Virus record (IMG/VR): IMGVR_UViG_3300042879_004465
Span: 1 to 60,595 of that record
Reading direction: 5' to 3' (one strand)
Length of the DNA: 60,595 bases
Source: a virus
Taxonomy: Duplodnaviria > Caudoviricetes
Below are positions 8,108 through 54,259 of the stretch, in pieces; the stretch's first letter is position 1; every line of letters begins with the position of its first letter. Made by a program: the position numbers and the translations under genes. The notes beneath the pieces were generated by a model. The model was not told the DNA's origin. It made no database searches and saw only the letters and a list, made by a program, of their open reading frames with translations.

Positions 8108-8113
8108 ATGACT

Positions 8114-8350: not shown

Positions 8351-8381
8351 CTGTCTGGGATAAATATGTTAGAATATAACC

Positions 8382-8426: not shown

Positions 8427-8441
8427 GAAAGAAAGGTAAAA

Positions 8442-9305: not shown

Positions 9306-9332
9306 AAAAACCCCCCGAAAGGGGGGTTTTTT
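9305..9332. terminator. Bidirectional intrinsic terminator
   Basis: AAAAAA-CCCCCC-GAAA-GGGGGG-TTTTTT between convergent genes. Confidence 0.9.
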
Positions 9333-38343: not shown

Positions 38344-39840
38344 TTATAATTTTATCTTGAATGCTTTGTAGTCAAATTTTTCTTTTTCGTATATCTTGAC
38401 TCTTTGTTCAAAATGCTTGAATACGTGATTCTTGTGCTTTTTCCAAGAAAGATCATCTACTAGATCGAATACTTTCAATGTTTGTTTTCTTTCGGATGTT
38501 CTTAGACCGCGTCCTATGCTTTGAAGCAATCTTATTACTGATTTAGTAGGAGAAGCAAAGATGATATTGTCAAGATGAACGATGTTGATCCCGGTGCTCG
38601 TAGTGCCAAAAGAAGCAACGAGAATGGCATTCTTTTCTCTGTCGATGATTTTCCTAATAGTTTCTCTATTTTCTGCGTCAGTTTTCCCCGAAATGAAATA
38701 TACGTTTTTATCGGGATGTCGTTTTTGAATGAGATCATAAAGTGGTTTTCCGTGCTTTTCTACGTAATTGAACAATACCAAAGTATTGCCTTCGGTTTCC
38801 CCGCAAAGTTTGGATATGAACTCGTTTCTGTCTAAATTTTCTACGAGTAACCCCATTTCTTCCTGATACTTCAATTTTTTGCAGCTATTCCGCATTTCGT
38901 CCGGATAATCCAAAATTATGCAGTCTATGGCCAATTTTGCCAAGACTCCCTTACCTATTAGCCCCTTCGTCGTTATAAACTGAATGGAGGGCCCTAGCGT
39001 GCCCTCTATTGAGAGCTTATGCGCCAAGGTCTGATCGAGCGTCCCGGTCGTTCCGAGCCTAAACCAAGCCTCTGTGAGCTTTTTACCGATGTTTACGAGA
39101 GAGTCGGCCTTGACCAAATGACACTCGTCAAAAATTACGGCATCAAACTGGTCAAACCAAGTTTTTGGAAGTTTGTATACCGATTGCCATGTAGAAACGA
39201 CCAATGGCTTATTGGTGTCCTTTTCTTTACCCGCAGTAATTTTATGCAAAAATTTGGTTACTGACCAATTTTTGTTTTTTCTAGAATAATCAAAAAAGTC
39301 TGCTTCCATTTGCTGGACCAGACCTACCGTGGGAACCAATAACAAAATTTTTTTGGGAGCCTTTAAGCAGTATCGCAATAAAAATCGAATTATCAAATAT
39401 ATGATTAATGATTTTCCGCTTCCAGTAGGAGATACTATTACAGATCTGCAGCTTTTTAAAGCATGTATGACCGCCTTTTTTTGGTGGTCATGTGGATTTA
39501 CTTCTTGGTTTTTTACGGTGACGTTCAATGTTTTGAAAAAACTGTCAAAAATGGTTTCATCCATTTCTACGGTTTTTGTATCTTTTTCGTCAAAAATTAA
39601 ATAATAGTTTCTTTCGTCACAAAATTTTTGAAGATACGTCTTCAATCCTCTTGGAAGAGTGGAGCTGTTTATTTCGTATAATTTTATTTTGCCATCCCAA
39701 ATACGAGATTTGTATAATGGCATGTATTCTGCGCCAGGAACTTTAAAAGAAAAATAAGATCGTAATTCTCTTTTTACAGAATCTTCACAATCAATTTTAT
39801 ACTTAGTGTTGTCTTCCGCAGACGCAATTACAGTGTACAC
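38344..39840 (-). CDS. uvsW: UvsW SF2 helicase
   Basis: WDGKIKL, SPTGSGKS, STWQS, DECH, GTTGTL, STGINI, RLLQSIGRGLR. Confidence 0.96.
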   Translation of the reverse strand: MYTVIASAEDNTKYKIDCEDSVKRELRSYFSFKVPGAEYMPLYKSRIWDGKIKLYEINSSTLPRGLKTYLQKFCDERNYYLIFDEKDTKTVEMDETIFDSFFKTLNVTVKNQEVNPHDHQKKAVIHALKSCRSVIVSPTGSGKSLIIYLIIRFLLRYCLKAPKKILLLVPTVGLVQQMEADFFDYSRKNKNWSVTKFLHKITAGKEKDTNKPLVVSTWQSVYKLPKTWFDQFDAVIFDECHLVKADSLVNIGKKLTEAWFRLGTTGTLDQTLAHKLSIEGTLGPSIQFITTKGLIGKGVLAKLAIDCIILDYPDEMRNSCKKLKYQEEMGLLVENLDRNEFISKLCGETEGNTLVLFNYVEKHGKPLYDLIQKRHPDKNVYFISGKTDAENRETIRKIIDREKNAILVASFGTTSTGINIVHLDNIIFASPTKSVIRLLQSIGRGLRTSERKQTLKVFDLVDDLSWKKHKNHVFKHFEQRVKIYEKEKFDYKAFKIKL

Positions 39841-39850
39841 AAATTATTTA

Positions 39851-40288
39851 TCATGAAATTCCATTTACCAATTTGTTCCAATCAATAGCGGACTTGATTG
39901 CAAAATTTCTGTTGGAAAGAACTTTGATAAAATCTTCCACCATTTTTACTTTTATTTCTGCAGTGTTGATGTCGTTTTTAATTTTTAAAAGAGTGGGGTC
40001 AGCATCCATGAAACGATCTATGTCGGTTTTCATTATCTTTAGCTCAAATGGTTCTTCGCCCCATTTTTCCAACTCTTCTTGGCTTGCCTTGCCGTTATAT
40101 ACCATCCACTTTCTCAATTCCATTACGGACAGTGCATTTCTTAATTTTTGTAGTTCGGTCTTAAGATCTGCATGTATTGAAAGATACTTTCCATGCACTG
40201 AAGGAGTTCTTAAAGACTCTTTAGCTAACTCTGTAGAGTCTATTAAAGAATCCTTTTTAATTTCCTGTTTAAGGTCTTCTAGATTCAT
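39851..40288 (-). CDS. uvsY: Recombination mediator UvsY
   Basis: KDSLIDSTEL..ESLRTPSVHGKY, YNGKA, NRNFAIKSAIDW. Confidence 0.93.
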   Translation of the reverse strand: MNLEDLKQEIKKDSLIDSTELAKESLRTPSVHGKYLSIHADLKTELQKLRNALSVMELRKWMVYNGKASQEELEKWGEEPFELKIMKTDIDRFMDADPTLLKIKNDINTAEIKVKMVEDFIKVLSNRNFAIKSAIDWNKLVNGIS

Positions 40289-40297
40289 TATAAGTAT

Positions 40298-40361
40298 ACT
40301 ATAGAGTATCTTTAAGGGGTTGTCAAGAAATACTTGACAACTTTGTGAAAAAGTGTATAAT
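40298..40361. promoter_or_regulatory. Divergent sigma70-like promoters for uvsY (-) and the glycan island (+)
   Basis: Plus strand: TTGACA(40334)-N16-TATAAT(40356). Minus strand: TTGACA(40326)-N17-TATAGT(40303). The two -35 boxes form TTGTCAAG-N5-CTTGACAA. Confidence 0.75.
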
Positions 40362-40389
40362 AGTGTAAAATCTTTTTAAAGTCGAAAAT

Positions 40390-41067
40390 ATGATTATAGA
40401 TTTAAGAAAAATTCAAACGGTATGGATTAATCTTGACGGCGCAACCGGAAATGCTCAAATTATGGAGCACAGATTCGGCATTCATAATTTTGAAAAAACA
40501 TACCGAAAATCGGCAAGACAAATAGCTCCGCCTCACGGAACACCGGATACAATTAAGCATTACGTAGGCTGTGCTCAATCTCATATTGATATTTTGGAGG
40601 ACACAAATTATTCGTGTCCTCTTTTAATTCTTGAAGATGATGCCGAGTTTACTCAAGACTTTCATCCTATGATTGAAGTTCCCGACAATACGGATGCGGT
40701 GTATCTAGGAGTATCTTCCGGTAATCCTCATTATTTGTCCAAGAGAGTAAACAAATATTTTCTTAGAATTGGAAAAATTTTGGCTACTCATGCTATTTTG
40801 TATTTGAATCCCGATTACAGAAAAGCGGTTGCAGACATTGCAAAAGTGTTTGCTTACAGATTAAAAATTCCATTTGACAATGGCTGTGCATTGATTCAGG
40901 AGAGATTCAATGTAATTACTCCCAACACTCCATTCTTTGTACAGGCAAACCAAAGACAAAGCGCAAATCAATGGGAAGCGGTGACATCAAAGCCCTTGGT
41001 TGACAAGAATAGCGATTTTCCTGTCAGAGAAGAAAACGTACAGCTAGGAATACAGGTGCCAGTATGA
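40390..41067 (+). CDS. Glycosyltransferase, GT25-like
   Basis: WINLD, GCAQSH, LILEDDA, ATHAILY. Confidence 0.75.
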   Translation: MIIDLRKIQTVWINLDGATGNAQIMEHRFGIHNFEKTYRKSARQIAPPHGTPDTIKHYVGCAQSHIDILEDTNYSCPLLILEDDAEFTQDFHPMIEVPDNTDAVYLGVSSGNPHYLSKRVNKYFLRIGKILATHAILYLNPDYRKAVADIAKVFAYRLKIPFDNGCALIQERFNVITPNTPFFVQANQRQSANQWEAVTSKPLVDKNSDFPVREENVQLGIQVPV

Positions 41068-41852
41068 TTGGAATGACAAATTTAGGAAATAATGGTAGAT
41101 TTGGAAATCAAATGTTTCAGTATGCCACGCTATACGCGCTTGGTAAAGAACTAAACTATGAAATTGGAATTCCGTATTTAAATAAAAGTAATGATGACTA
41201 TTTTAATTTTTGTCTACCAGAGTGTTTTTCATTATCGGCAAAAGATTTAAAGGGCCATTATTTTTCATCTTATTATCAAGAACCTCACTTTTCTTATGAT
41301 ACTAATATTAAAAATATTCCTGATAATACAAATTTAAAAGGATATTTTCAAAGTGAAAAATATTTTAAAAATTGCAAAAATGATTTAATGTTTAAAGAAT
41401 TTAATTTTAATAACGAAATTAAAATAAAAACAAAAAAATTATTAAACGGAAGAGACTCAGAATTAATATCAGTACACATTAGACTGGGAGACTATTTAAA
41501 ATTTCAAGATTCTCATCCAATATGTTCTACTGACTACTATAAAACAGCAATCCAAATGCTACCAAGCGATGCAAATATTATGCTTTTTAGCGACGATTAT
41601 AGTTTGGCATTACCATTTTTTAAAGATTTGGGAATAAAAGTTTTTGCATGTGGTACAAATAATAAATTTATAGATATGTGTTTAATGACACAATGTGAAT
41701 ATCATATAATTGCAAATAGTTCATTTAGCTGGTGGGGTTCTTGGTTAAGCAATAGCAAAAAAACAATAGCACCAAAGCAATGGTTCGGTACAGCACCACA
41801 TATGCCAAAAATTTGGAATGATGTTTATGCAGAAGATTGGATTGTAATATGA
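41064..41852 (+). CDS. GT11 alpha-1,2-fucosyltransferase-like protein
   Basis: GRFGNQMFQYA, GYFQSEKYF, SVHIRLGDY, FSDD, IIANSSFSWWGSWL. Confidence 0.92.
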   Translation: MIGMTNLGNNGRFGNQMFQYATLYALGKELNYEIGIPYLNKSNDDYFNFCLPECFSLSAKDLKGHYFSSYYQEPHFSYDTNIKNIPDNTNLKGYFQSEKYFKNCKNDLMFKEFNFNNEIKIKTKKLLNGRDSELISVHIRLGDYLKFQDSHPICSTDYYKTAIQMLPSDANIMLFSDDYSLALPFFKDLGIKVFACGTNNKFIDMCLMTQCEYHIIANSSFSWWGSWLSNSKKTIAPKQWFGTAPHMPKIWNDVYAEDWIVI

Positions 41853-42787
41853 TTACAGTTAGATGTCCTGTAAGAATATCTTTGGTAGGCGGGTCCAGCG
41901 ATCTTGATGCTTATGTAGATAAGCATGGAAAGGGATCTGTTATTTCATTTACTCCAAAAATTTATACTTATGTTTCTATTTACAGGGATAAAATTGGACG
42001 TAACACCATTGATCAAAAGTATATTGTAAATTATTCTCAGCGAGAAGAAGTAAATACAATAAAAGAAATTAAAAATGAACTTGTAAGATTATTTTTTGAA
42101 AAAGAAAGAGTCTATCCTTGTTCAATCCATATGACTAGCGATGTATTTTCTCATGGCTCCGGGCTTGCTGTATCTTCTTCGTATTCTTGTTGTTTGGTAA
42201 AAGCTATTTCCGAGTTAAACAAGACATATCTTTCTGATATTGAGTGTACGGCGAAAGCGCACATTTTAGAAAAATTAATAAATCCGCTTTTGGGGCAACA
42301 AGATGTTTTCGGATGTGGAATTGGTGGATTTAAAAAAATAGAATTTACTCAAAATAGTCTTCCAAAGTATACATTTTTACCGACATCTTTTTTTAATTAT
42401 TATGTTCCATATCTGGTATTTACAGGTCTTACTAGAAACTCTACTAGTATTTTAAAAAATGTTAATGTTCCAGATACCGATACTTTTAATCCTTTGGTAT
42501 TTGAATCAGAACAAATGATATTAAACGGAAACTATGAAAAGTTTTTGCGATTGATAAAGGCTGGCTGGGAAGAAAAAAAAAGAACATCAAAGAGTGTTTT
42601 AGAAGAGCAATCATTGAAAGACTTGGATGAGTATTTGGATAAATATCCTGGTTGCGTAGCACACAAGCTATGTGGTGCTGGCAATGGAGGATTTTTTTTA
42701 GCTTTCTTTGAAGCACAAAATCTTCCAACACATCATAAATTTATTAAAGTAGAATTGAGCAATAGCGGTATTGAAAAAATATTATGA
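41849..42787 (+). CDS. hddA: GHMP-family sugar kinase, HddA-like (heptose-7-phosphate 1-kinase)
   Basis: PVRISLVGGSSD, GSGLAVSSS, GQQD, KLCGAGNGGF; adjacent to gmhA. Confidence 0.8.
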   Translation: MITVRCPVRISLVGGSSDLDAYVDKHGKGSVISFTPKIYTYVSIYRDKIGRNTIDQKYIVNYSQREEVNTIKEIKNELVRLFFEKERVYPCSIHMTSDVFSHGSGLAVSSSYSCCLVKAISELNKTYLSDIECTAKAHILEKLINPLLGQQDVFGCGIGGFKKIEFTQNSLPKYTFLPTSFFNYYVPYLVFTGLTRNSTSILKNVNVPDTDTFNPLVFESEQMILNGNYEKFLRLIKAGWEEKKRTSKSVLEEQSLKDLDEYLDKYPGCVAHKLCGAGNGGFFLAFFEAQNLPTHHKFIKVELSNSGIEKIL

Positions 42788-43296
42788 ATAATTTTATAAA
42801 TAAAATAGACTCAGCTCTTAAAAATTTAAATTTTATTGATTTGGATTATTTAAAAAAAATAGTATTAGACACCAAATCGGAAATTATTATATTAGGAAAC
42901 GGTGGCAGCAACGCTATTTCGTCTCATATAGCCGAAGACTATACAAAAGCGTTAAAGAAAAAAGCAATTGCATTTACAGACGGTGCTAGGCTAACATGCT
43001 ATTCTAATGATTATGGGTATGAGAATGCATTTAAACAATATCTATCAGAATTTTCCACAAAAGATAGTCTTGTAATTTTAATAAGCTCTTCTGGAAATTC
43101 TCAAAATATTTTAAATTGTGCTGAATATTGCCTTGAAAACAAAATTAAATACATTATTTTTTCAGGTTTTAAACAAAATAATTGTTTAATAACAAAATAT
43201 GCAGACCAATCATTGTTAAATTTTTGGGTAAATTCCGACGATTACGGTGTTGTTGAATGTATTCACGAAATTATTTTACACTCGGTAATATCATGA
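42784..43296 (+). CDS. gmhA: SIS-domain phosphoheptose isomerase, GmhA-like
   Basis: GNGGSNAISSH, SNDYGYE, ISSSGNSQNIL, VECIH. Confidence 0.85.
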   Translation: MNNFINKIDSALKNLNFIDLDYLKKIVLDTKSEIIILGNGGSNAISSHIAEDYTKALKKKAIAFTDGARLTCYSNDYGYENAFKQYLSEFSTKDSLVILISSSGNSQNILNCAEYCLENKIKYIIFSGFKQNNCLITKYADQSLLNFWVNSDDYGVVECIHEIILHSVIS

Positions 43297-44009
43297 TTTA
43301 CTGCTTCGATTTGGATGAGACTCTTTGTACTAAAGCTATTGATGGTGATTACGCTACTGCAATGCCAATAGAAGAGGCTATAGAAAAAGTAAACATTCTT
43401 TGGATATTAGGAAATAAAATTTTAATATTTACTGGCCGAGGATCTAGCAGTGGTAAAGATTGGGTGGAATTGACAAAACAACAATTAAAAAATTGGGGTG
43501 TAAAATATGACGAATTAATAATGAATCGCAAGCCTACTTACGATGTAATAATAGATGACAAAGCAATAAATGCTGTTGACTGGCGAAATACTTTTTGCAA
43601 AACTCGCGGAGTTGTCGCTGGAGCATTCGATCTAATACATCCGGGATATTGTAAGTTATTTAAATTTTGCAAAGAACATTGTACTCATCTTACTGTTTTA
43701 TTACATGATGATCCATCTATAGAGAGAAAAAAAATGAGTCCAGTTCACAATCTCGGAGAAAGAACGGAAATTTTAAAGTCCATTAGATACGTTGATGACG
43801 TAATTGCATATACCGATGAGCAGGATCTTGCTATAAAATTAGAACTTGGATATTACAATGTCAGATTTTTGGGAGATGATTATAGAACAAAACCATATAC
43901 TGCGGATTATCTTCCTATTAAGATCATCTATACAGATAGATCGCACGGTTATTCTACGACGCAGTTAAAGAAAAAAATAGCTGATTCATACAAGGAGTTT
44001 ATGGGATGA
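43293..44009 (+). CDS. Fusion of a HAD phosphatase and a cytidylyltransferase-family nucleotidyltransferase
   Basis: N-terminal half: FDLDETLC, FTGRG, KPTYDVIIDDKA. C-terminal half: GAFDLIHPGY, ERTEILKSIRYVDDV, GDDY, GYSTT. Confidence 0.85.
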   Translation: MIYCFDLDETLCTKAIDGDYATAMPIEEAIEKVNILWILGNKILIFTGRGSSSGKDWVELTKQQLKNWGVKYDELIMNRKPTYDVIIDDKAINAVDWRNTFCKTRGVVAGAFDLIHPGYCKLFKFCKEHCTHLTVLLHDDPSIERKKMSPVHNLGERTEILKSIRYVDDVIAYTDEQDLAIKLELGYYNVRFLGDDYRTKPYTADYLPIKIIYTDRSHGYSTTQLKKKIADSYKEFMG

Positions 44010-44902
44010 AAATAATCGTAACTGGCGGATGTGGTTTTATAGGTAGTCATTTAGTAGATATGCTGGTGGAAAAAGAACATCAAGTTATTGTGATTGATGA
44101 CTGTTCTGCTGACAATGAAAAGTTTTATTACAACCAAAAAGCAGAATACTATAAAAACTCTATCTGCGAAATGGATTTTTTAGATAAAGTAACCAAAAAT
44201 TGTGATTTTATATTTCATCTGGCCGCGGAATCTCGGCTGCAAAATTCAATATTAAATCCGAGACGAGCGGTAGATGTTAATATTGGTGGAACTATTAATC
44301 TGCTTGAGTGTTGCAAAAAACATAAAATAAAAGGAATTATATTTTCGTCTACCTCATGTGTGTATGGATTAACAAATTGTCTACCGATTAAGGAAGATCT
44401 ACCAGAAGATTGTCTGAATCCATATGCGTCTACAAAATACGCAGCAGAGCTATTGATAAAAAACTATGTAAAACTGTTTAATATTAATGCTTGTATTTTT
44501 AGATATTTCAATGTTTTCGGTGAACGTTCTCCTGCACATGGACCTTATGCGTTGGTGACAGGCATTTTTTTGAAACAAAAAGCAAACAACCAACCACTGA
44601 CGGTTGTCGGGACAGGCTTGCAAGAAAGAGATTTTATTTACGTAAAAGATGTTGCACTAGCAAACATATTGGCCATGGAACATTGGGATATTGATAATAT
44701 AAAATCTGGAAATGTATTCAATATCGGTTCGGGTTCGGCTATAAAGATTATAGATCTTGCAAAATCCATATCGGATAACATTCAATTTATACCACCAAGA
44801 CAAGGTGAGGCTGAAAATAATCTATGTTCAATAGAAAAAATTCAAAAAGAAATTGATTGGAAACCAACTATAAATATTTTAAAGTGGCTTGAAAGTCGGT
44901 GA
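44006..44902 (+). CDS. NAD-dependent epimerase/dehydratase (extended SDR)
   Basis: TGGCGFIGSH, HLAA, YASTK, RYFNVFG, RDFIYVKDV. Confidence 0.92.
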   Translation: MKIIVTGGCGFIGSHLVDMLVEKEHQVIVIDDCSADNEKFYYNQKAEYYKNSICEMDFLDKVTKNCDFIFHLAAESRLQNSILNPRRAVDVNIGGTINLLECCKKHKIKGIIFSSTSCVYGLTNCLPIKEDLPEDCLNPYASTKYAAELLIKNYVKLFNINACIFRYFNVFGERSPAHGPYALVTGIFLKQKANNQPLTVVGTGLQERDFIYVKDVALANILAMEHWDIDNIKSGNVFNIGSGSAIKIIDLAKSISDNIQFIPPRQGEAENNLCSIEKIQKEIDWKPTINILKWLESR

Positions 44903-44908
44903 ATTATT

Positions 44909-45706
44909 ATGTGCAATTTAACATCAATTATTCCGGTTAAAATTGATTCAGAACAAAGAAAAAAAAATATAGATATAACCTTGAGGTATTTGCTTCAAAA
45001 TACCGATTCCAAAATAATAATCACTGAATGTGATGATCATCCCAAATTTGATGTAAAACACTATAATTCAGATCGTATAAAATATAAGTTTGAAAAAATT
45101 CAAAACAATTTTTTTCATCGAACTCGTTTAATAAATCAAATGTTAAATGAAGTTGATACTCCGGTTGTAGCCAATTATGATGCTGATGTTATTTTACCAA
45201 AAACTTCATACGAAATATCGGAAAAATTAATTTTAACAAAACAAGCTGATGTGATCTATCCGTATGGCTTCAACTGTGCTGGACAAAGAAGAATATTTCC
45301 AGATACAAAAGGTTTAAACAAATTTTATCACACACTAAATCTTGATGATTTGGAGCTTGACCAAAGAAGCCCTTGGCTCAGTAGATACGGACATGTTCAA
45401 TTTTTTAATACTGAGTGCTATATAAAAGGTTTTATGGAGAATGAAAACTACAAGCATTGGTGTCCTGAAGATGATGAACGTGCAATTCGATTTCAAAAAT
45501 TGGGATATAAAGTTATTTGGTTAGACAGCTTGGTATATCACCAAGAACATCCACCTTCTACGCAATCACAGCCATCTAATCTGCATGAAATTTATAAACT
45601 TCACAATTACTTAATACAAGGAAACAAAGAGTCAATAGAAACATACTACAGAAGCCAAGAATATTTAAAAAAGTATGATTCTTATAAAAAATTATGCACA
45701 GCTTAA
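44909..45706 (+). CDS. Glycosyltransferase (GT2/GT7-C-like)
   Basis: NYDADV DxD motif; FMENENYKHWCPEDDE resembles the GT7 GWGxED motif. Confidence 0.75.
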   Translation: MCNLTSIIPVKIDSEQRKKNIDITLRYLLQNTDSKIIITECDDHPKFDVKHYNSDRIKYKFEKIQNNFFHRTRLINQMLNEVDTPVVANYDADVILPKTSYEISEKLILTKQADVIYPYGFNCAGQRRIFPDTKGLNKFYHTLNLDDLELDQRSPWLSRYGHVQFFNTECYIKGFMENENYKHWCPEDDERAIRFQKLGYKVIWLDSLVYHQEHPPSTQSQPSNLHEIYKLHNYLIQGNKESIETYYRSQEYLKKYDSYKKLCTA

Positions 45707-46494
45707 TATTAACAATACACAATAAAGAGTTTTTGCTTCCGCGTGTGCTAGAGGGCATTAAGAATAATACTACAGGATCTTACGAGCTAATTGTGGTATT
45801 GGATGGTTGTTCGGATAGGTCTAGTCAAATAGTATACGATTATCATAATAAGTTTGATAAAATAAGAATATTTGAAACACCGAATGTATTTGAGACAAAG
45901 TCAAATAACGTTGGCCTAAAAAATAGCTCAGGCAAATATTGCACAATTATTCAAGACGATATGATTATAAATGAGTATGCTTGGAATGAAAGAATGGTAA
46001 AACCATTTTCTTTTGGTGATGTATTTGCAGTCACTTCTCGTACAGCTCATAATTGGCAGTTTAATCCTCACACACTCCATTTAAATCTGCCTAATGAATT
46101 GGACCATTGCTGGTGCGATGTTTTGAATCACGTAGATCACGCACATAGAGGAAACACTCCAAGAGAAGAATTTGCAATAAGAAGCTCGGTGAATCGTGGT
46201 CCACTGATGATTCTTCATGAGGATTTACAAAAATTAAATTACCTTGATGAGGAATTTAGTCCGCAAGACATGGATGATCATGATTTTTGCTATAGAGCTA
46301 AAAAAATCTTAAATAAAGTGTGTGGTTGTTATTGGGTAGACATAATAACACAAGATTCTTGGGGAGGAACTAGAGTTTCTGGTTCACCGGCGGCATGGTT
46401 ATTAAAAGCTCATCACAAAAATACAAAAATATTTTATAATAGACATAAGGATTTAATTCATTCACCTCAAGCGATAGAAAGTAGAAAATTATGA
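45694..46494 (+). CDS. GT2 glycosyltransferase
   Basis: TIHNKE, VLDGCSDRS, IQDDM, YLDEEF...DDHDFC. Confidence 0.85.
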   Translation: MHSLILTIHNKEFLLPRVLEGIKNNTTGSYELIVVLDGCSDRSSQIVYDYHNKFDKIRIFETPNVFETKSNNVGLKNSSGKYCTIIQDDMIINEYAWNERMVKPFSFGDVFAVTSRTAHNWQFNPHTLHLNLPNELDHCWCDVLNHVDHAHRGNTPREEFAIRSSVNRGPLMILHEDLQKLNYLDEEFSPQDMDDHDFCYRAKKILNKVCGCYWVDIITQDSWGGTRVSGSPAAWLLKAHHKNTKIFYNRHKDLIHSPQAIESRKL

Positions 46495-47099
46495 TAAATC
46501 AAGTCAAAGAAGCAATTTCAGACGAAAGATGGATGCAGACACAACCTGGAGAAAAAGCAGGACATATTATTGATCCAATAGAAATTTCATATAAAAAATA
46601 TAAAATTGCATATAGTTATTATTTTCAATATTTAAATATTGAAAATTTAGATTTAAAACAAAAAAGTGTAATAGAAATAGGCTGTGCTAGAATTTCTTCT
46701 TTATTTTTTTGTAATAACTATTCGACTTCATATGTAATAGAGCCCACATATTACCCAGAAGCCGATCAGTATTATGAAGGAAAAAATATTATCAAAATAC
46801 ACGATAAAGCAGAAAAATGTAATTTTCCAAAAACCGATGAAGTATGGTTGTTTAATGTTTTAGACCACGTTCAAGATCCAGATTTAATTATTAATAAAGC
46901 AAAACAAAATGCTAAAATTATTAGGTTTTTTGAACCTATTGATTGTGGTACTAATTTGGAGCATCCTTTTAGTTTTACTTTAAACGATTACAAAAAATAT
47001 TTTGGTGATTGTGTAAAACTTTATAGTTGTCCAAACAAAGAACACCCTTCCAAGATGTTTCATGGCTCCGATTGCGCTTACGGAGTTTATTATGTCTAA
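46491..47099 (+). CDS. Class I SAM-dependent methyltransferase-like, copy A
   Basis: VIEIGC, VIEP, DEVWLFNVLDHVQDP. Confidence 0.65.
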   Translation: MINQVKEAISDERWMQTQPGEKAGHIIDPIEISYKKYKIAYSYYFQYLNIENLDLKQKSVIEIGCARISSLFFCNNYSTSYVIEPTYYPEADQYYEGKNIIKIHDKAEKCNFPKTDEVWLFNVLDHVQDPDLIINKAKQNAKIIRFFEPIDCGTNLEHPFSFTLNDYKKYFGDCVKLYSCPNKEHPSKMFHGSDCAYGVYYV

Positions 47100-47679
47100 A
47101 AAATCAATTGACGATCAAAGATGGAACGAAGCTCAACAGGCCGAGAAGCCACACCATATAGCAGATTCTTTGAGCCATTCATATACACACTATGATAAAA
47201 TTTATGATATGTATTTTCAATATTTAAATATTGAAAAACAAAATCTTAAACAAAAATCTATTGCTGAAATAGGACCAGCACGAATACCTGGTTTGTTTTT
47301 TTGTAAAAATTATTCTAAATCATATGTGATTGAGCCAACTTATTATCCAGAAACAGATGAATATTATCGGGGAAAAAATATTGTTAGAATTTTTGAAAAA
47401 GCAGAAAATTGTAAATTTCCACAAACTGATGAAATTTGGCTACTAAATTTATTACAACACGTACAAGACCCAGATAAACTAATAGCACTATGCAAAAAAA
47501 ATGCAAAGACTATTAAATTTTTTGAACCAATAGATTATCCAATTAGCGTTGAACATCCTTTTACTTTTTCTTTTGAAGATTATGTTGAATATTTTGGAAA
47601 TAGTGTAAAGAGATATACTCCAGTGCCGGGATTCCATCAAGCAAATTGTGTGTATGGTGTATATGAAAACAATTGGTAA
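47092..47679 (+). CDS. Class I SAM-dependent methyltransferase-like, copy B
   Basis: IAEIGP, VIEP, DEIWLLNLLQHVQDP; colinear with copy A. Confidence 0.65.
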   Translation: MSKKSIDDQRWNEAQQAEKPHHIADSLSHSYTHYDKIYDMYFQYLNIEKQNLKQKSIAEIGPARIPGLFFCKNYSKSYVIEPTYYPETDEYYRGKNIVRIFEKAENCKFPQTDEIWLLNLLQHVQDPDKLIALCKKNAKTIKFFEPIDYPISVEHPFTFSFEDYVEYFGNSVKRYTPVPGFHQANCVYGVYENNW

Positions 47680-47717
47680 ACAAAAAATATTTACTTAAAT
47701 ATGGTTTGGGTGTATAA

Positions 47718-48419
47718 ATGAAAAATTTAAAAAATATTACTTTAGTGTCAATAAATTGTGTTAATCCACGCGAGTCTTATAAAGCATTAAAATATTGTTC
47801 GAAGTTTTTTAATTTTTATGACACTATTTTATTTACAGATGATAAAAGTAACTATGAAGGAGTAAATGTAAAAAAAATACCAAAATTAACATGGGAAACA
47901 TATAACGATTTTGTGTTGCATTTAGATTCTTATATTAAAAGCGAATATGTTTTAATAATTCAAGACGATGGTCACATAGTTAATCCTGATTTGTGGACGG
48001 ATGAATTTTTAAAATATGATTACATAGGAGCTCCTTGGCCAAGCGAAATTGACTGGATTGAAAAACAACTTCCCACACAACAAGAATACATGAAAAAATA
48101 TTTTCCAAAAAATAGAGTTGGAAATGGTGGATTTTCTTTACGAAGCAAAAAATTTTTACAATTTTCTAATCAGTATATTTCTTGTGAAGGCGTAGGAGAA
48201 GATAGTTTTTTATGCACACGGATCTATGAAGAGGCTATAGAGTATGGAATCAAATTTGCTCCATTTGATTTGGCTGTACATTTTTCATATGAAAATCCTT
48301 GTATAGAATTTGGTTTTACTTGGAATTCTAGAATATACTTTGATAAAACAAAGCATTTTGGCTGGCATGGAAAAAACTTCATAAATACACATGAATTACT
48401 TTCTTTAAAGGATACATAA
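47718..48419 (+). CDS. DUF5672-like GT-A fold protein
   Basis: LIIQDDG, EFLKYDYIGAPW, VGNGGFSLRSKK, GED, FGWHG; TTAAATA late-type motif at 47695. Confidence 0.75.
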   Translation: MKNLKNITLVSINCVNPRESYKALKYCSKFFNFYDTILFTDDKSNYEGVNVKKIPKLTWETYNDFVLHLDSYIKSEYVLIIQDDGHIVNPDLWTDEFLKYDYIGAPWPSEIDWIEKQLPTQQEYMKKYFPKNRVGNGGFSLRSKKFLQFSNQYISCEGVGEDSFLCTRIYEEAIEYGIKFAPFDLAVHFSYENPCIEFGFTWNSRIYFDKTKHFGWHGKNFINTHELLSLKDT

Positions 48420-48420
48420 T

Positions 48421-49410
48421 ATGGTGATTTTGATTACTGGGTGTGCTGGTTTACTTGGTGCCAATTATACTCGCCATTGCCTGAATAATGGACACACTGT
48501 AATAGGAATAGATGATTTTTCTGGCGGCTATAAGAGTTTTCTTCCGTCTCATTCATCATTCACCTTTTATGAATTGAATATCCTTGATCAAGATAAATTA
48601 ACAGACATTTATAAAAAGCATTTACCGGAATGTACATATCATTTTGCAGCTTATGCTGCAGAAGGTTTGTCTCCTTTTATTAGAAATTTTAATTATACCA
48701 ATAACATCATTTGCTCTGCAAATGTCATTAATTGTTGTGTAAATTTTAATAGTAAATTAATTTTCACTTCTAGTATGGCCGTCTACGGCAAACAACCAGC
48801 TCCATTCACTGAAGACTTATTGCCAGTTCCGATAGACCCATACGGAATTGCAAAGTATGCTGTTGAACTTGACATAAAGCAAGCGCATGAACAATTTGGT
48901 CTGAGATACAATATTATTAGACCACATAATGTTCTTGGTATGTATCAAAATATTTGGGATAGATATAGAAATGTAATAGGAATATTTATTAGAAAAGCTA
49001 TAAATGGAATTCCTTTATTGGTATATGGTGATGGAGAACAAACACGCGCATTTTCTGATATAAACTACTATATGGATCCATTTGATTCATTGATGTGCAA
49101 AAATGATGGTGAGTTGTTTAATATAGGAGCAGACAAATATTATTCCATTAATGAAGCTGCAGATATAGTTAAACAAGTTGCAAAAAAATATAACTATAAT
49201 GTCTCCATAAAATATGTGGAACCAAGGCATGAAGTCAAGCATGCCTATTGTGATCATACAAAGGCAAAGCAATATTTAAACTTTGAAGACAAAACAGATT
49301 TGCATGATTTGATAGAAAAAATGTTTGGATGGGCAATAAAAGAACCAAACAGAGATCTAAAAATTATGAAATATGAAATAGAAAAAAACATGTATAGTTA
49401 CTGGAAGTGA
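48421..49410 (+). CDS. NAD-dependent epimerase/dehydratase
   Basis: TGCAGLLG, HFAAYAAEGLSPF, SSMAVYG, PYGIAK, GDGEQTRAFS. Confidence 0.9.
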   Translation: MVILITGCAGLLGANYTRHCLNNGHTVIGIDDFSGGYKSFLPSHSSFTFYELNILDQDKLTDIYKKHLPECTYHFAAYAAEGLSPFIRNFNYTNNIICSANVINCCVNFNSKLIFTSSMAVYGKQPAPFTEDLLPVPIDPYGIAKYAVELDIKQAHEQFGLRYNIIRPHNVLGMYQNIWDRYRNVIGIFIRKAINGIPLLVYGDGEQTRAFSDINYYMDPFDSLMCKNDGELFNIGADKYYSINEAADIVKQVAKKYNYNVSIKYVEPRHEVKHAYCDHTKAKQYLNFEDKTDLHDLIEKMFGWAIKEPNRDLKIMKYEIEKNMYSYWK

Positions 49411-49431
49411 TAAATAAAATATTGGTTTATT

Positions 49432-50127
49432 ATGCAAATTGAAATTTTTATCCGTCATTGTTTTTATTCCCCAAACTCAGCAATACCTAATCGGCATCGC
49501 CCGGATTGGTTTGACAAAGAAAAAATATTTAAAAATTTTAAAAAAGAAGCCAACAAACCAAATTGCAATTATACAATTATATACGACAATCACTTTGGCC
49601 CCCGCAATCAAACTTTTCTGAAAGACGAGACAAATGTGGTTGATATAAACTGTGGTACTGAGGCAAGTAGTTTTATTTTTATGTTGAATTATGTTAGAGA
49701 AAAGAATTATAATCCAGAAACTATAATATATTTTGTAGAGGACGATTATCTCCATAGACCAGATTGGGATGTAGCAATGCGAGAAGCATTTGGGTTGCCA
49801 ATTCATTACGTATCTTTATATGACCATTTGGACAAGTATCTATATTATCCTGATTTATTTTCTAAAATTTATTGTACTTCCAGATGTCATTGGAGAACAG
49901 TACCATCTACATGCAATACATATGCGGTTAAATTCAAACAATTGATGGAAGATTATCATACAAACGAAGTGTATAGTGTATATTCTAATAATGGTGTTTC
50001 ACGTGATCATGAAAAATTTGTAGACTTAGGACGACAAGGAAAAGTATTGGTAACTCCGATGCCTGGTTATGCGACTCACTGCGATCACTTACAATCGCCC
50101 ACGCTTGACTGGAAACAGTACATATGA
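49432..50127 (+). CDS. GT-A fold glycosyltransferase-like protein
   Basis: IIYFVEDDYLH, YVSLYDHLDKY, HWRTVPSTCNT, PGYATH; ATAAATA late-type motif at 49410. Confidence 0.65.
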   Translation: MQIEIFIRHCFYSPNSAIPNRHRPDWFDKEKIFKNFKKEANKPNCNYTIIYDNHFGPRNQTFLKDETNVVDINCGTEASSFIFMLNYVREKNYNPETIIYFVEDDYLHRPDWDVAMREAFGLPIHYVSLYDHLDKYLYYPDLFSKIYCTSRCHWRTVPSTCNTYAVKFKQLMEDYHTNEVYSVYSNNGVSRDHEKFVDLGRQGKVLVTPMPGYATHCDHLQSPTLDWKQYI

Positions 50128-50951
50128 AAGATTGTGTTGTTTATTTGGCAGGCAATAGCGAAGATAATATCAAAGATTTTTATAAAAGTTTATCGTTGTT
50201 GTACGAAAATTATCTTAAAACATTTCAATGTGATGTTGTTGTATTTCACGAAAAAGAATTTATTTCAAAGTTACCCGATTTAATAAAGACGTTTTCAAAT
50301 ATCTCATTTAAATTCTTTGAAATACAATTTAACACTCCAAAGTATCCACCAAATATAATGGAAAATATTCCTGAATATTTTCCGCACCCGACTCATGGCA
50401 GCGGACCCATTGCATGGGGGCATCCCGGGTTTAGTCTAGGATATAGACATATGTGCAATTTTTTTAGTGGAGAGCTATATCAGCAAGTTGGATTGAATGA
50501 CTACGATTATTATATGAGGCTAGACACCGACTCTTATATTTTAAAAAAAGTTACATATAATGTTTTTGATATGATGCGTCATCATGATGCCATATATGGT
50601 TTTATAGGAGCCGCAGTGCAAATTGACAATTCAAAAGTTGTTGAAGGTCTGTGGGAATATTGTAAAAAATTTTCAGATTTAAGTGAGCATGTAAAAGATA
50701 AATTAAAAATTTTAAACATACCTTCTGGAAAAATGTATTACAATAATTTTGAAATAGGAAAAATATCTTGGTTTAAAGGATCTTCTTATAGAGCTTTTTA
50801 CGAGTATATAAAAGAGTCAGGAGGAATTTATACTAAAAGATGGGGCGATGCTCCTATTAGATATTTGGGCATTAATTTATTATTGGATGATTGTAAATTA
50901 ATAGATATAAATAATATCGCATACCAACATGGAGCCATTTATAATTTATGA
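50124..50951 (+). CDS. GT15 (Kre2/Mnt1-like) alpha-1,2-mannosyltransferase-like protein
   Basis: GYRHMCNFFSG, YDYYMRLDTD, YNNFEI, GGIYTKRWGDAP are the hallmark GT15 motifs. Confidence 0.82.
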   Translation: MKDCVVYLAGNSEDNIKDFYKSLSLLYENYLKTFQCDVVVFHEKEFISKLPDLIKTFSNISFKFFEIQFNTPKYPPNIMENIPEYFPHPTHGSGPIAWGHPGFSLGYRHMCNFFSGELYQQVGLNDYDYYMRLDTDSYILKKVTYNVFDMMRHHDAIYGFIGAAVQIDNSKVVEGLWEYCKKFSDLSEHVKDKLKILNIPSGKMYYNNFEIGKISWFKGSSYRAFYEYIKESGGIYTKRWGDAPIRYLGINLLLDDCKLIDINNIAYQHGAIYNL

Positions 50952-51637
50952 ATAATTTTTGTTTACTTATGTATTGCAATGAAAAATATAAATTATTTCA
51001 AGAAAAAACTTCAAGATCATTAATAGAGAGTGGTATTATAAATAAAAGTTTTATTAAAGATGAAAATGATTTAAAACAAACAATTTTCTACGAAGAACAT
51101 AAAAAAATATTATCTGTTCCAAGAGGAGCAGGATATTGCTTGTGGAAACCATATTATATTTTGGAAACCTTATTATTATTACAAGATAATGAAATATTAT
51201 TTTATTTGGATAGTGGGGACTGTATAATAAACATTTTAGAATTTAAAGAAAAAATTGATAAATTAATTTTTGACAAAGACTATTTGTTTTTTGATGGAGG
51301 ATTTTTACAAAAAGAATATACTAGATATGATTGTTTTTATATGATGAATTGTTTAAATTCAAATTACACAGATAGAATTCAGTTAGAAGCTGGTGTTTTA
51401 TTTTTAAAAAATACACCATTTATTAAAAATTTTGTAAAAGAATGGTTGTATTATTGTTCCAATTATCAAATAATAAGTGATGAACAAAATATATACGGAA
51501 ACAATTTTCCAGAATTTAAAGATCATAGACATGATCAGAGTATTCTGACTAATCTTGTAGAAAAATATAAATTATCTAGTATTCCAATGGAAAATTCTGT
51601 TAGACAAGACAATATAAAATGTAATTATTATAAGTAA
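50948..51637 (+). CDS. GT-A fold glycosyltransferase-like protein
   Basis: RGAGYCLWKPYYI, LFYLDSG, FVKEW, DHRHDQSILT. Confidence 0.65.
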   Translation: MNNFCLLMYCNEKYKLFQEKTSRSLIESGIINKSFIKDENDLKQTIFYEEHKKILSVPRGAGYCLWKPYYILETLLLLQDNEILFYLDSGDCIINILEFKEKIDKLIFDKDYLFFDGGFLQKEYTRYDCFYMMNCLNSNYTDRIQLEAGVLFLKNTPFIKNFVKEWLYYCSNYQIISDEQNIYGNNFPEFKDHRHDQSILTNLVEKYKLSSIPMENSVRQDNIKCNYYK

Positions 51638-51650
51638 AAAAGGAAAATTT

Positions 51651-52628
51651 ATGAAAACAGCGTTAGTTTTAGGAGCAGGCGGATTTATTGGTGGGCATCT
51701 TGTAACTCGCTTGAAAAATAGAGGATATTGGGTTCGCGGCGTAGACATTAAAGAACACGAATATAAAAAATCAGAGGCAGACGAATTTTTATTATTGGAT
51801 TTGCGAGACTCTATTAATGTTGAAGCAGCACTAAAATTGAATAATGAAACTTTTGATGAAATATATCAACTAGCAGCCGATATGGGTGGCGCCGGTTATA
51901 TTTTTACAGGTGAACATGATGCAGACGTTATGCACAATTCAGCTATTATTAATTTAAATGTTGCTAACAGTGCAGTACAATACAAAAAAATGCCAAAGAT
52001 TTTTTATTCTTCATCGGCATGCATGTATCCTGAATATAATCAATTAGATCCCAATAACCCAAAGTGTAGTGAAGAATCGGCTTATCCGGCTGCACCTGAC
52101 AGCGAATATGGATGGGAAAAGCTGTTCAGTGAACGTGTGTATTTGGCGTATAATAGAAATTATAAGTTACCCGTTCGCATTGGTCGTTTTCACAATATTT
52201 TTGGTCCTTATGGATCTTGGAATAACGGAAAAGAAAAAGCCCCGGCAGCAGTTTGTCGAAAAGTTGCGTCAGCAGAAGAAGGTGGATCGATTGAAATTTG
52301 GGGAGACGGAAAACAAACAAGATCATTTTTATATATTGATGAGTGTTTAGACACTATTGAAAAGTTTATGAAATCAGACTTTTTGGGACCAATGAACATT
52401 GGCTCTGAAGAAATGGTTTCAATCAATGAACTTGCAAACCGAGTGATGTCAATTGCAAATAAAAATGTTACAATTCAAAATAAACCCGGACCAGAGGGAG
52501 TTCGCGGAAGAAATTCTGATAATACTCTAATGCGAGAAAAATTAAATTGGGCTCCAAGCGCTCCGTTGAATGAAGGGTTAAAAAAGACCTATGAGTGGAT
52601 CAATAGTATGGTAAATCCATCTACTTGA
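51651..52628 (+). CDS. GDP-mannose 3,5-epimerase-like SDR
   Basis: GAGGFIG, LAADMGGAGYI, SSACMYPE, PDSEYGWEK, RFHNIFGP, EKAPAA.CRK, WGDGKQTRSF. Confidence 0.85.
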   Translation: MKTALVLGAGGFIGGHLVTRLKNRGYWVRGVDIKEHEYKKSEADEFLLLDLRDSINVEAALKLNNETFDEIYQLAADMGGAGYIFTGEHDADVMHNSAIINLNVANSAVQYKKMPKIFYSSSACMYPEYNQLDPNNPKCSEESAYPAAPDSEYGWEKLFSERVYLAYNRNYKLPVRIGRFHNIFGPYGSWNNGKEKAPAAVCRKVASAEEGGSIEIWGDGKQTRSFLYIDECLDTIEKFMKSDFLGPMNIGSEEMVSINELANRVMSIANKNVTIQNKPGPEGVRGRNSDNTLMREKLNWAPSAPLNEGLKKTYEWINSMVNPST

Positions 52629-52653
52629 TTTTTATATCAACTTATGGTATAAT
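52625..52653 (+). promoter_or_regulatory. Sigma70-like promoter for gp55 (probably leaderless)
   Basis: TTGATT-N17-TATAAT with extended -10 (TGgTATAAT); ATG at 52660 at the expected +1, no SD. Confidence 0.7.
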
Positions 52654-52659
52654 CATCAC

Positions 52660-53208
52660 ATGGCAAAGTCAAAACCGAAGAAACCCAAGAAGAAAAAAGA
52701 CAAGGATGGCGATTATGTAGATAACGCCCGTCTGTACCAAGAATTAGTAGACGCGGGAAAAAAGAAGCCTAAGTTACCCGATTACATAGGCGATGCGATT
52801 TTAAAGATAGCCAGTAGATTATCTTACCGTCCCAACTTTGCCAATTACAGCTACCGCGAGGAGATGGTCTCCGACGCGGTTTTAAATTGCATTACGTATA
52901 TCGATAACTTTGATCCGGACGTTTCAAAGTCTCCGTTCGGATATCTTACTCAGATTTGCTGGTTCTCTTTTGTAAGAATCATAAACAAGGAAAAGAAGGA
53001 AAAGTACGTACAGTACAAGCTTGCAGAAAGCAAGAACGATCCTGAATTCCACAAATGGTTCAACGAAAAGTTTTCCGGAGTAGAGAACGGCTTCAAGGAT
53101 GCTTTTGGAATCGGTGAAGCCGAGGTAGAAAAGATGGACAAGCAACTTGCTGGCAAGAGAAAAGGCCGCAAGAAAAAGACACCAGATGGAGGTTCCTTGA
53201 ATGTGTAA
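52660..53208 (+). CDS. gp55: Late sigma factor gp55
   Basis: YVDN, YIGDAILKIA.RLSYRPNFANYSYREEMVSDA, NFDP...PFGYLTQI...F..II.KEK. Confidence 0.95.
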   Translation: MAKSKPKKPKKKKDKDGDYVDNARLYQELVDAGKKKPKLPDYIGDAILKIASRLSYRPNFANYSYREEMVSDAVLNCITYIDNFDPDVSKSPFGYLTQICWFSFVRIINKEKKEKYVQYKLAESKNDPEFHKWFNEKFSGVENGFKDAFGIGEAEVEKMDKQLAGKRKGRKKKTPDGGSLNV

Positions 53209-54259
53209 GGCAGTCATTCTGAATGACACTCATTTCGGATTCAAGGGAGACTCGACAACGGTAAACGAATATTTCATCAGGTTCTTTGAGAACCAGCTTT
53301 TTCCTTATATCGAGGAAAATAAAATACAATATGTGTTTCATTTGGGTGATTTGTTCGACCGTAGAAAATACATCAACTTCAGAACGCTCAATCAAGTAAG
53401 AGAGCGGGTTCTGGATGTGTTTGAAAAATTGGGGACAGAGAATCACATCATCTGCGGAAACCATGATACTTTTTTTCGCAATAACAACTCACTGAATTCT
53501 CTTACCGAACTTCTTTCCAAATACAAGAACTGGAAAGTCTATTCGGAACCTACTCTGGTAAACTTCGGTCCAGAGGACAAGTATTGCGCCGCATTGTTGC
53601 CTTGGATCAACCCAGAGAATGAACAAAAGTCCGCTGAGTTCATCAAAGATGTTCCTTGCTCGATTTTGATGGGACATCTTGAGCTTGCTGGTTTCCAGAG
53701 CATTCGTGGGGTGTTTATAGATGCTGGATATGACCCGAGCCACTTTGCCAAGTTTGAATATGTATTGACCGGGCATTATCACGTATCCTCCCGTAGAGAC
53801 AATATTTACTATCTGGGAACCCAATATCAAATGTCTTTTTCCGACGTTTGGGAGAAGAAGGGATTCCATGTATTTGATTTTGAAACAAGAGAACTTCAGT
53901 TTATCGAGAATCCGGAGAAGATATTCTTCACTATAGATTATAATGAAGACGAAAAGATAAATTTAAACTTTGAAACATATAAAAATTCGTTCGTCAAGAT
54001 ATTCGTGAAGAAAAGAACGAAGAACAATTTGTTTGAAAAGTTCATCGATAAATTCTATGAGGTCGGGGTTGCGGAGCTTGCAATCGCGGAAGAAACTCAA
54101 CAGGAAAAGACAGAACTGGACATAGATATAGAAAAAGATACTCTGCAGCTTCTGTATGAGGAAGTCAATCTTATTGAAGAAAAGGTTGACAAAAATATGT
54201 TGCATGATATAATTACTACGACTTATCAAACTGCCTTGGCAGGGGATATAGATGATTGA
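53201..54259 (+). CDS. gp47: Recombination endonuclease gp47 (Mre11/SbcD-like)
   Basis: DTHFG, HLGDLFDRRK, GNHD, GHLE, GHYH. Confidence 0.96.
   Translation: MCKAVILNDTHFGFKGDSTTVNEYFIRFFENQLFPYIEENKIQYVFHLGDLFDRRKYINFRTLNQVRERVLDVFEKLGTENHIICGNHDTFFRNNNSLNSLTELLSKYKNWKVYSEPTLVNFGPEDKYCAALLPWINPENEQKSAEFIKDVPCSILMGHLELAGFQSIRGVFIDAGYDPSHFAKFEYVLTGHYHVSSRRDNIYYLGTQYQMSFSDVWEKKGFHVFDFETRELQFIENPEKIFFTIDYNEDEKINLNFETYKNSFVKIFVKKRTKNNLFEKFIDKFYEVGVAELAIAEETQQEKTELDIDIEKDTLQLLYEEVNLIEEKVDKNMLHDIITTTYQTALAGDIDD

Follow-up and report, generated by a model that had tools for sequence, protein, structure and literature searches.

Activated heptoses are building blocks of the bacterial envelope, and their beta-linked nucleoside diphosphate (NDP) form is a potent agonist of the vertebrate receptor ALPK1. 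One described route, to GDP-D-glycero-alpha-D-manno-heptose, uses GmhA, HddA, GmhB, and HddC (Aneurinibacillus, Campylobacter, Bacteroides); another, to ADP-L-glycero-beta-D-manno-heptose, uses GmhA, HldE (or HldA plus HldC), GmhB, and HldD. Sugar kinases of the HddA type, which belong to the GHMP family, yield the alpha anomer, whereas HldC uses the beta anomer, and the nucleotidyltransferase (NT) reaction retains the anomeric configuration. Here we describe a cassette of four plus-strand genes at positions 41849-44902 of IMG/VR record IMGVR_UViG_3300042879_004465, a 60,595-nucleotide stretch of Caudoviricetes DNA (hereafter, the window). The genes encode a GHMP kinase, a SIS isomerase, a fusion of a HAD phosphatase to an NT, and a short-chain dehydrogenase/reductase (SDR). 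Judging from homology and gene order, we think it probable that they form a self-contained route from a ketose phosphate to an NDP-aldose, most likely from sedoheptulose 7-phosphate (available from the pentose-phosphate and Calvin cycles) to an NDP-heptose.

Set beside the GDP-heptose pathway, the cassette has the same four chemical steps, with a SIS isomerase nearest GmhA and a GHMP kinase nearest HddA/WcbL. However, its phosphatase is of the AfhF type rather than GmhB, its transferase is an HxGH-class Rossmann enzyme rather than a GlmU-like HddC, these two activities are fused, and the scores are far below the cut-offs of the curated models. With the ADP-heptose pathway it shares the transferase superfamily of HldC, the joining of two steps in one protein (as in HldE), and an SDR, here GalE-like, in the place of HldD. 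It differs from that pathway in having a GHMP rather than a PfkB kinase, HPGY rather than HxGH, and RSHGYSTT rather than (F/L)xxGxSTT, the latter being the motif given for heptose transferases in the accessible part of a published commentary (PMC11573728).

There is also a clear likeness to the NDP-arabinose pathway of phages (AfhE/AfhF in HY126; gp51, gp52-53, and gp55 in RB69), which has the same logic of isomerase, anomeric kinase, omega-phosphatase, and NT, occurs in a T4-like phage setting as well, and includes in AfhF and RB69 gp51 true homologs of the cassette phosphatase. As set out in the available portion of its report, that route runs from an isomerase and an anomeric kinase through removal of the terminal phosphate by AfhF to formation of the NDP-sugar, and employs a KdsD-like isomerase, an APH-like kinase, and a MurU-like transferase (PMC13326640). 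Its sugar is a pentose and its acceptor is DNA, whereas the window encodes GT-A, GT2, GT11, and GT15 glycosyltransferases instead. The best sequence and fold matches of the window NT are the cytidylyltransferases TagD/TarD and CCT/ECT. The window NT keeps RYVD and RxxGxSTT-like motifs, and basic residues aligned to K44 and K46 of TagD, but has Tyr for the second His of HxGH and shares its polypeptide with a sugar-bisphosphate phosphatase, or in relatives with a sugar kinase. Finally, the lincosamide GDP-octose sub-pathway (LmbR, LmbN, LmbP, LmbK, and LmbO), compared here by description only, also has a SIS protein, a GHMP kinase, a HAD, and an NT in series, but its transaldolase LmbR has no counterpart in the window, and LmbO is a GlmU-type guanylyltransferase.

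The four open reading frames (ORFs), each supported by a domain call, are the kinase (312 aa, 41849-42787, with a possible earlier start at 41837), the isomerase (170 aa, 42784-43296), the fusion (43257 or 43293 to 44009), and the SDR (298 aa, 44006-44902). The fusion probably starts at 43293, giving a protein of 238 aa with the N-terminus MIYCFDLD; 20 of the 32 homologs in our main alignment (A1, chosen from 120 listed) begin at this Met. Stop and start codons overlap as ATGA at 42784 (kinase/SIS), 43293 (SIS/fusion), and 44006 (fusion/SDR), as well as at 41849, where the kinase follows a GT11-family gene, and the four genes are thus predicted to be one translationally coupled module. A sequence-only reading of this DNA had already listed a kinase, a GmhA-like protein, a HAD-NT fusion, and an SDR in series, and both the ORFs and the domains bear this out. 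It had also assigned the kinase to the alpha route (HddA type), taken the HAD for something other than GmhB, and called the transferase an HxGH type with HPGY, and on all three points the matches described below agree with it.

The arrangement recurs well beyond the window. Our locus set comprised 72 IMG/VR loci with the fusion plus Synechococcus phage SynMITS9220M01; 33 carry a fused HAD-NT protein, with HPGY in all except one (32/33). Kinase and SIS genes lie directly upstream (at least 35% identity) in 28 of the 30 HPGY loci having at least 1.6 kb of upstream sequence, and 27 of the 30 with at least 1 kb on the downstream side have an SDR gene there. Because kinase, SIS, and SDR genes recur in this way around HPGY fusions, the arrangement is not attributable to chance. 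SynMITS9220M01 reproduces the whole set, gene for gene and in unchanged order (genes 204-207); its fusion, 47.5% identical to that of the window, is annotated "hypothetical protein," and its genome announcement, in the part available, names the other three as heptose-related (PMC7378029). Thus, the cassette is widespread, common in marine T4-like phages, and already partly annotated in a published cyanophage genome.

The SIS protein would convert sedoheptulose 7-phosphate to heptose 7-phosphate. Its four best NCBIfam matches are all GmhA models, and its 15 PDB matches comprise 13 phosphoheptose isomerases and two DiaA entries. The active site of E. coli GmhA consists of S55, H61, E65, D94, S119, S124, and H180. 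In the numbering of that enzyme, N52, G53, G54, S55, H61, N93, D94, S119, S124, and H180 are kept in 34/34 cassette SIS proteins; the alignment is ambiguous across the region of GmhA residues 169-175. The kinase, which has a GHMP_kinases_N domain, is predicted to phosphorylate the anomeric position of heptose 7-phosphate. HddA is its best NCBIfam model, and heptose kinases take the first four places among its PDB matches (3k85, 4usm, 4usk, and 4n3o, 86.7-59.8 bits), followed by a fucokinase at 32.8 bits. It is thus nearest to HddA and not to PfkB kinases.

The N-terminal domain of the fusion (residues 1-105, 43293-43607) is a small HAD in which the motif DxDxT (D6, D8, and T10), K80, and D88-D89 are invariant across A1. 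It matches PDB entry 9iqw_A, titled [quoted passage not shown] with an E-value of 2.2e-11 as a single sequence and 3.7e-20 as a family profile, and it scores 84.1 bits against the PHROGs family phrog_1238. Neither GmhB nor HAD-IIIA models of NCBIfam match the window fusion protein, and the best NCBIfam match of the domain is to EcbF-BcbF (TIGR01689) at 19.7 bits. Homology to AfhF together with intact HAD catalytic motifs places the domain in the AfhF type; by this homology it is predicted to be a sugar-1,omega-bisphosphate phosphatase, and in the cassette it would act as the 7-phosphatase on heptose 1,7-bisphosphate. The domain is also 33.7% identical to phage JS09_0133, a homolog of RB69 ORF051c (gp51) whose gene adjoins those of an arabinose-5-phosphate isomerase and a kinase/pyrophosphorylase. 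According to the portion of the HY126 report that is available, AfhF is a Mg-dependent phosphatase that converts arabinose 1,5-bisphosphate to arabinose 1-phosphate ahead of the NDP-sugar pyrophosphorylase, and AfhF itself is the only member of this small HAD family described there as assayed (PMC13326640).

The C-terminal domain (residues 106-238, 43608-44009) belongs to CTP_transf_like and is an HxGH-class NT with HPGY at the HxGH position (H116-P117-G118-Y119), invariant in 32/32 aligned homologs. The four cassette genes contain no GlmU-like NTP_transferase domain of the HddC type (NF049965). Based on profile comparison, the NT scores 74.9 bits with TagD, 73.9 with ECT, 57.0 with TarD, ~37 with CCT, and 32.8 with HldC (5x9q, Burkholderia pseudomallei). 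The predicted fold ranks similarly (TMt 0.84-0.86 for TagD, 0.79 for the Fom1 cytidylyltransferase domain, and 0.67 for HldC), and RSHGYSTT is closer to RTEGISTT of TagD than to the heptose motif given above. The reaction would be sugar 1-phosphate plus nucleoside triphosphate (NTP) to NDP-sugar. A search of the NT sequence found no reliable determinant of nucleotide specificity; CDP seems somewhat favored, with the curated models for TagD and rfaE domain II nearly tied. Among relatives of the domain, five (P0196, P0221, P0236, P0258, and P0283) carry a cREC_REC ("cyclic-phosphate processing receiver") domain in the same chain.

The SDR is an extended, GalE-like enzyme (Epimerase family, 188.5 bits; 175.9 bits against GalE, below the cut-off of 262.3). 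It has the YxxxK motif (PYASTKYAAEL) and the GalE-type SSTSCVYG, and the Thr-Asp-Glu triad that marks 4,6-dehydratases was not seen in the aligned sequence. We expect it to epimerize the NDP-sugar at C4 or C6.

Fusions in other lineages join the same activities pairwise. GHMP kinase and HPGY NT form one protein in P0141 (458 aa, from the 595-kb uncultured phage LR756511.1) and in P0142, with identities to the window of 58% for the kinase over its full length and 60% for the NT; the LR756511.1 locus has this fusion and an SDR, but no SIS or HAD within 5 kb. A cassette-type SIS is joined to an HPGY NT in P0182, and a SIS to an HSGH NT in P0251. In P0180, a GmhB-type HAD (128.5 bits to NF006506; 115.4 bits to Histidinol-ppas, above its cut-off of 84.15) precedes an HPGY NT that is 48% identical to that of the window, which points to heptose 1-phosphate as the substrate of HPGY NTs. 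P0273 combines the small HAD with a near-canonical GmhA-like SIS (175.7 bits against a cut-off of 209.45), P0149 has NT and HAD in reverse order, and locus L028 carries an NT-GHMP fusion beside a HAD-NT (HAGH) fusion and an additional GHMP kinase. Given the conserved synteny and these pairwise fusions, we consider that kinase, phosphatase, isomerase, and transferase belong to one pathway. Recurrence of kinase, phosphatase, and transferase from nonhomologous parts is what a sugar-1,omega-bisphosphate route predicts. Two metagenomic proteins of ~400 aa (P0177 and P0197) carry the cassette's three activities with an unrelated kinase, as a small HAD, an AAA_33 P-loop kinase, and an HxGH NT in a single chain.

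Canonical heptose genes can also lie close by. SynMITS9220M01 has, 4 kb upstream of its cassette, a second sugar module (genes 196-200; L001:1-3823) with a more canonical HddA (276.7 bits), an HddC-like NTP_transferase, a GMD-like 4,6-dehydratase, a cupin, and an RmlD-like reductase, which we take to be the Campylobacter-type set for 6-deoxy-heptose. Neither an isomerase nor a phosphatase is part of this module, which leaves only those of the cassette. In locus L079, a PfkB kinase and an HPGH NT immediately precede the cassette. The presence of the cassette beside canonical alpha- or beta-type pairs in single phages suggests that its product is not redundant with theirs.

In the scheme that we favor, the SIS protein would convert sedoheptulose 7-phosphate to D-glycero-D-manno-heptose 7-phosphate, the GHMP kinase would phosphorylate C1 to give the alpha-1,7-bisphosphate (by homology to HddA), and the AfhF-type domain would take off the 7-phosphate. 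The fused HPGY NT would then couple heptose 1-phosphate to an NTP (CTP somewhat favored), and the SDR would epimerize the resulting NDP-heptose. The product may feed the transferases of the surrounding glycan island (GT11, GT25-like GT-A, GT2, DUF5672, and GT15; see below), which would be read from a host-type promoter, early in infection. The alpha anomer is proposed from the homology of the kinase to HddA. Heptose is favored as the sugar because the isomerase and kinase are nearest GmhA and HddA among both NCBIfam models and solved structures, because P0180 joins an HPGY NT to a GmhB-type HAD, and because SynMITS9220M01 and L079 carry canonical heptose genes near the cassette.

Several observations weigh against heptose as the sugar. 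Every cassette component scores far below the curated cut-offs for heptose enzymes: 70.1 bits (cut-off 209.45) for the SIS protein against GmhA (TIGR00441), 74 (cut-off 600) for the kinase against HddA (NF049969), although this is still its best NCBIfam model, 46.6 (cut-off 181.5) for the NT against HldC (rfaE_dom_II, TIGR02199), and 118.3 (cut-off 274.6) for the SDR against the HldD epimerase (TIGR02197). The catalytic Glu65 of GmhA is Asp in 34/34 distinct cassette SIS proteins, a conservative but systematic change, and polyol- and amine-phosphate cytidylyltransferases, which use CTP, lie closer to the NT than HldC does. HPGY was considered as a marker of heptose specificity and rejected: stand-alone HPGY NTs, ~50% identical, occur among housekeeping or unrelated genes in five small marine or archaeal metagenome-assembled genomes (MAGs), none of which has rfaE domain I or II at its cut-off (0/5; the MAGs are incomplete, 0.6-1.8 Mb), so the HPGY subfamily is not restricted to heptose. 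Nor is the small HAD family, which acts on arabinose in RB69-like phages and whose bacterial and archaeal stand-alone members occur with a NeuB-family synthase in eight of nine loci examined. Moreover, no GT9 heptosyltransferase was found among the 16 island ORFs scanned. Of the earlier proposal of a three-gene route to an NDP-heptose, then, what stands is the single pathway, upheld by synteny and pairwise fusions; its heptose assignment is the part that suffers from scores so far below the cut-offs.

One way to accommodate these points is to keep the order of steps and change the sugar, to an octose obtained by way of a transaldolase (compare the lincosamide GDP-octose pathway), a hexose, or a pentose (as in the NDP-arabinose pathway). 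All likenesses to heptose enzymes are remote, the HAD family acts on arabinose 1,5-bisphosphate in HY126, and in one diverged cassette (L029) a transaldolase gene lies between those of the SIS and the kinase, which keeps the octose route open. Yet the window has no transaldolase among its 69 ORFs scanned with Pfam (in a fragment of a record estimated to be 33% complete), GmhA and HddA outrank all other NCBIfam models and solved structures as matches of the SIS and kinase, P0180 unites an HPGY NT with a GmhB-type HAD, and the cassette co-occurs with canonical heptose genes, so that we regard another sugar as unlikely. We give far less credence to the idea that the NT is a glycerol-3-phosphate or other polyol-phosphate cytidylyltransferase, independent of the kinase and isomerase and with an unrelated role for the HAD. 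TagD ranks first among NCBIfam models, PDB sequences, and folds, many homologs carry the Joint Genome Institute (JGI) product name "glycerol-3-phosphate cytidylyltransferase" (these names are predictions), and stand-alone HPGY NTs are found in housekeeping contexts; the greater closeness to TagD/ECT than to HldC leaves this idea some weight. However, the score against TagD (TIGR01518) is 58.7 bits, far below the cut-off of 165.4, the second His of HxGH is Tyr, and the synthesis of CDP-glycerol requires neither a phosphatase nor a kinase. Strict synteny and translational coupling also speak against it, and a polyol-phosphate substrate is unlikely given that orthologous NTs are fused to an HddA-like kinase, the cassette SIS, or a GmhB-type HAD.

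If the cassette does make an NDP-heptose, as we prefer, the product could be a familiar or a new one. Within this explanation, it is possible, but in our judgment doubtful, that the cassette is simply a nonorthologous replacement of a known route, with no new nucleotide sugar. The best PHROG for the NT is the cyanophage "heptose" NT family phrog_7878 (111.8 bits), the SynMITS9220M01 fusion is essentially tied between rfaE_dom_II and TagD (59.2 vs. 58.8), and the viral heptose enzymes so far tested all made ADP-heptose, according to the available parts of two commentaries (PMC11573728, PMC11461863). Against this, a second route would be redundant where a PfkB kinase and HPGH NT (L079) or HddA and an HddC-like protein (SynMITS9220M01) adjoin the cassette, and the second His of HxGH is Tyr in 32/32. 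The opposite anomers made by HddA-type kinases and used by HldC point the same way. We hold equally tentatively that this is a third, hybrid heptose route to an undescribed nucleotide sugar, such as CDP-D-glycero-alpha-D-manno-heptose or its epimer, in which the HddA-type kinase would set the alpha anomer and the AfhF-type HAD would be the "missing" viral heptose-bisphosphate phosphatase. If so, HxGY NTs would provide a nucleotide handle orthogonal to ADP and GDP, and a phage could run the cassette beside canonical routes (as in L079 and SynMITS9220M01) to feed a separate glycan.

The accessible parts of the texts on a cross-kingdom survey of heptose NTs (Tang et al. 2024) describe three architectures only, mono-domain, kinase/NT, and isomerase/kinase/NT (PMC11573728, PMC11461863), and the survey reportedly found viral heptose enzymes but no viral phosphatase (PMC11461863). 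The AfhF-type HAD family is a candidate for that phosphatase, the phosphatase-transferase fusion is a fourth architecture, and it is unexpected to find a GHMP kinase together with an HxGH-class transferase. Our search found no literature tying heptose, GHMP, and cytidylyltransferase together, and the CDP- and UDP-heptose papers found concern, in the parts available, ALPK1 signaling or the beta-D-manno series. As far as we searched, three things are new to print: the identification of an AfhF-type HAD as candidate phosphatase in phage heptose modules, the HAD-NT architecture with invariant HxGY, and its pairing with a GHMP kinase. Given how common it is among marine T4-like phages, the cassette bears on how ocean viruses may redirect sedoheptulose 7-phosphate and remodel surface or virion glycans.

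The wider family is large. Counting single-domain relatives, 1004 clusters (90% identity) of 1295 candidates were retained at an E-value of 1e-3 or better, and a 50%-identity library yielded 4642, 912, and 29 representatives at E-values of at most 1e-3, 1e-10, and 1e-30, respectively. Seven more fused copies are on contigs filed as cellular (Prochlorococcus single-cell assemblies and several MAGs), and many of these may be phage DNA. The diverged cassette mentioned above (L029:3163-6735) reads SIS, FkbM methyltransferase, transaldolase, GHMP kinase, HAD-NT (HPGY), SDR; it is one of the two loci lacking the upstream pair at the identity required, yet a more divergent SIS, a transaldolase, and a GHMP kinase do lie directly upstream. 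In two other loci, a gene for an S-adenosylmethionine-dependent methyltransferase is inserted between those of the kinase and the SIS (L018:4743-5504 and L009:4857-5495), and P0146 has a TylF-type methyltransferase following its HAD-NT in the same protein; these methyltransferases hint at O-methylated products.

The small HADs also occur apart from the fusion. In cyanophage P-SSM2, the 114-aa gp311 (L002:7086-7430) shows the HAD motifs DIDGT and IDDK, is 41% identical to the window domain, and adjoins a PfkB kinase and an HPGH NT; from this composition the set appears to be a beta-type heptose module, and the small HAD would be its phosphatase. Family phrog_1238 (~110 aa) is labeled "phosphoheptose isomerase" in PHROGs and in many T4-like phage records. 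Because gp311, which bears that name, is a HAD with DIDGT and IDDK, the label is wrong on the evidence of the motifs, and these proteins are predicted HAD phosphatases homologous to AfhF and RB69 gp51. The stand-alone HADs of cellular origin (loci L092, L094, L106, L109, L128, L130, L140, and L146, each at ~4300-9600, and L101) come from Dehalococcoidia, Chloroflexota, Solirubrobacterales, Actinomarina, Woesearchaeota, and other MAGs, and are 47%-55% identical to the window domain. Common neighbors in their NeuB clusters (from a scan covering 83 of 138 computed ORFs) are a CMP-sugar synthetase (CTP_transf_3), a GmhA-like SIS_2 protein, an AP_endonuc_2 TIM-barrel protein, a class IV aminotransferase, and an SDR. 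Such clusters resemble an uncharacterized CMP-ulosonic-acid pathway, where cleavage of the terminal phosphate would fall to the HAD.

At 60.6 kb the window is only a fragment, and the phage's own genome is represented by this stretch alone. T4-type structural and packaging proteins (portal, prohead protease, scaffold, gp23, terminase, and neck and baseplate proteins) are encoded along with T4-type proteins of replication, recombination, and regulation (UvsW, UvsY, a gp46/47-like nuclease, the sliding clamp, the clamp loader, RegA, and gp32). By these genes the phage is classed as a marine T4-like myophage, and it is placed outside the cultured cyanophage groups because its major capsid protein is only ~54% identical to the Synechococcus and Prochlorococcus myophage counterparts.

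The cassette lies in a 12-kb plus-strand island of low G+C content (0.29-0.33), bounded on the left by uvsY (39851-40288, minus strand) and on the right by a late-sigma-like gene (52660-53208). Based on Pfam and NCBIfam scans, the island consists of sugar-nucleotide and glycosyltransferase genes. A sigma-70-type promoter sequence on the plus strand (TTGACA, 16 nt, TATAAT; 40334-40361) is the sole 12/12 consensus within 39800-53400 and occupies the single intergenic gap before the island. Promoter-like sites in the region overall are not above chance (76 vs. 74.1 expected). This match to the consensus suggests early expression of the island from a host-type promoter. Control by late promoters was considered too, but the T4 late motif TATAAATA is not enriched (7 found vs. 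6.6 expected).

The first island gene (40390-41067, plus strand) has no Pfam match, but its AlphaFold 2 (AF2) model (predicted local distance difference test score 80.6, predicted template modeling score 0.83) has a GT-A glycosyltransferase fold of the GT25-like kind, with Mimivirus R655 and human GLT25D1 as best Foldseek matches; E82-D83-D84 are invariant, and such a gene is a frequent cassette neighbor. Heptosylation of phage DNA by an enzyme like T4 BGT was considered and is unsupported, the first gene having the R655/GLT25D1-like GT-A fold. Next is the GT11-family gene (41064-41852, plus strand; Glyco_transf_11, 84.5 bits), whose counterparts are found in 20 of the 32 HPGY-fusion loci and are the most constant transferase partner of the cassette. 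Further genes encode GT2, DUF5672, and GT15 (Kre2/Mnt1-type) proteins and two additional SDRs. Overall, the island looks like a set for oligosaccharide assembly on a host or virion acceptor, not for DNA modification.

The GT15 gene (50124-50951) encodes a homolog of Kre2/Mnt1-type alpha-1,2-mannosyltransferases (Glyco_transf_15, 122.5 bits), a family known mostly from fungi but found here in a phage glycan island. At the 3' end of the window, an ORF (59953-60594) contains collagen triple-helix repeats; any link between it and the GLT25D1-like first island gene is pure speculation. At the other end, a 1499-aa ORF (72-4571) with weak RCC1-like repeats (30.1 bits) probably encodes a structural or fiber protein.

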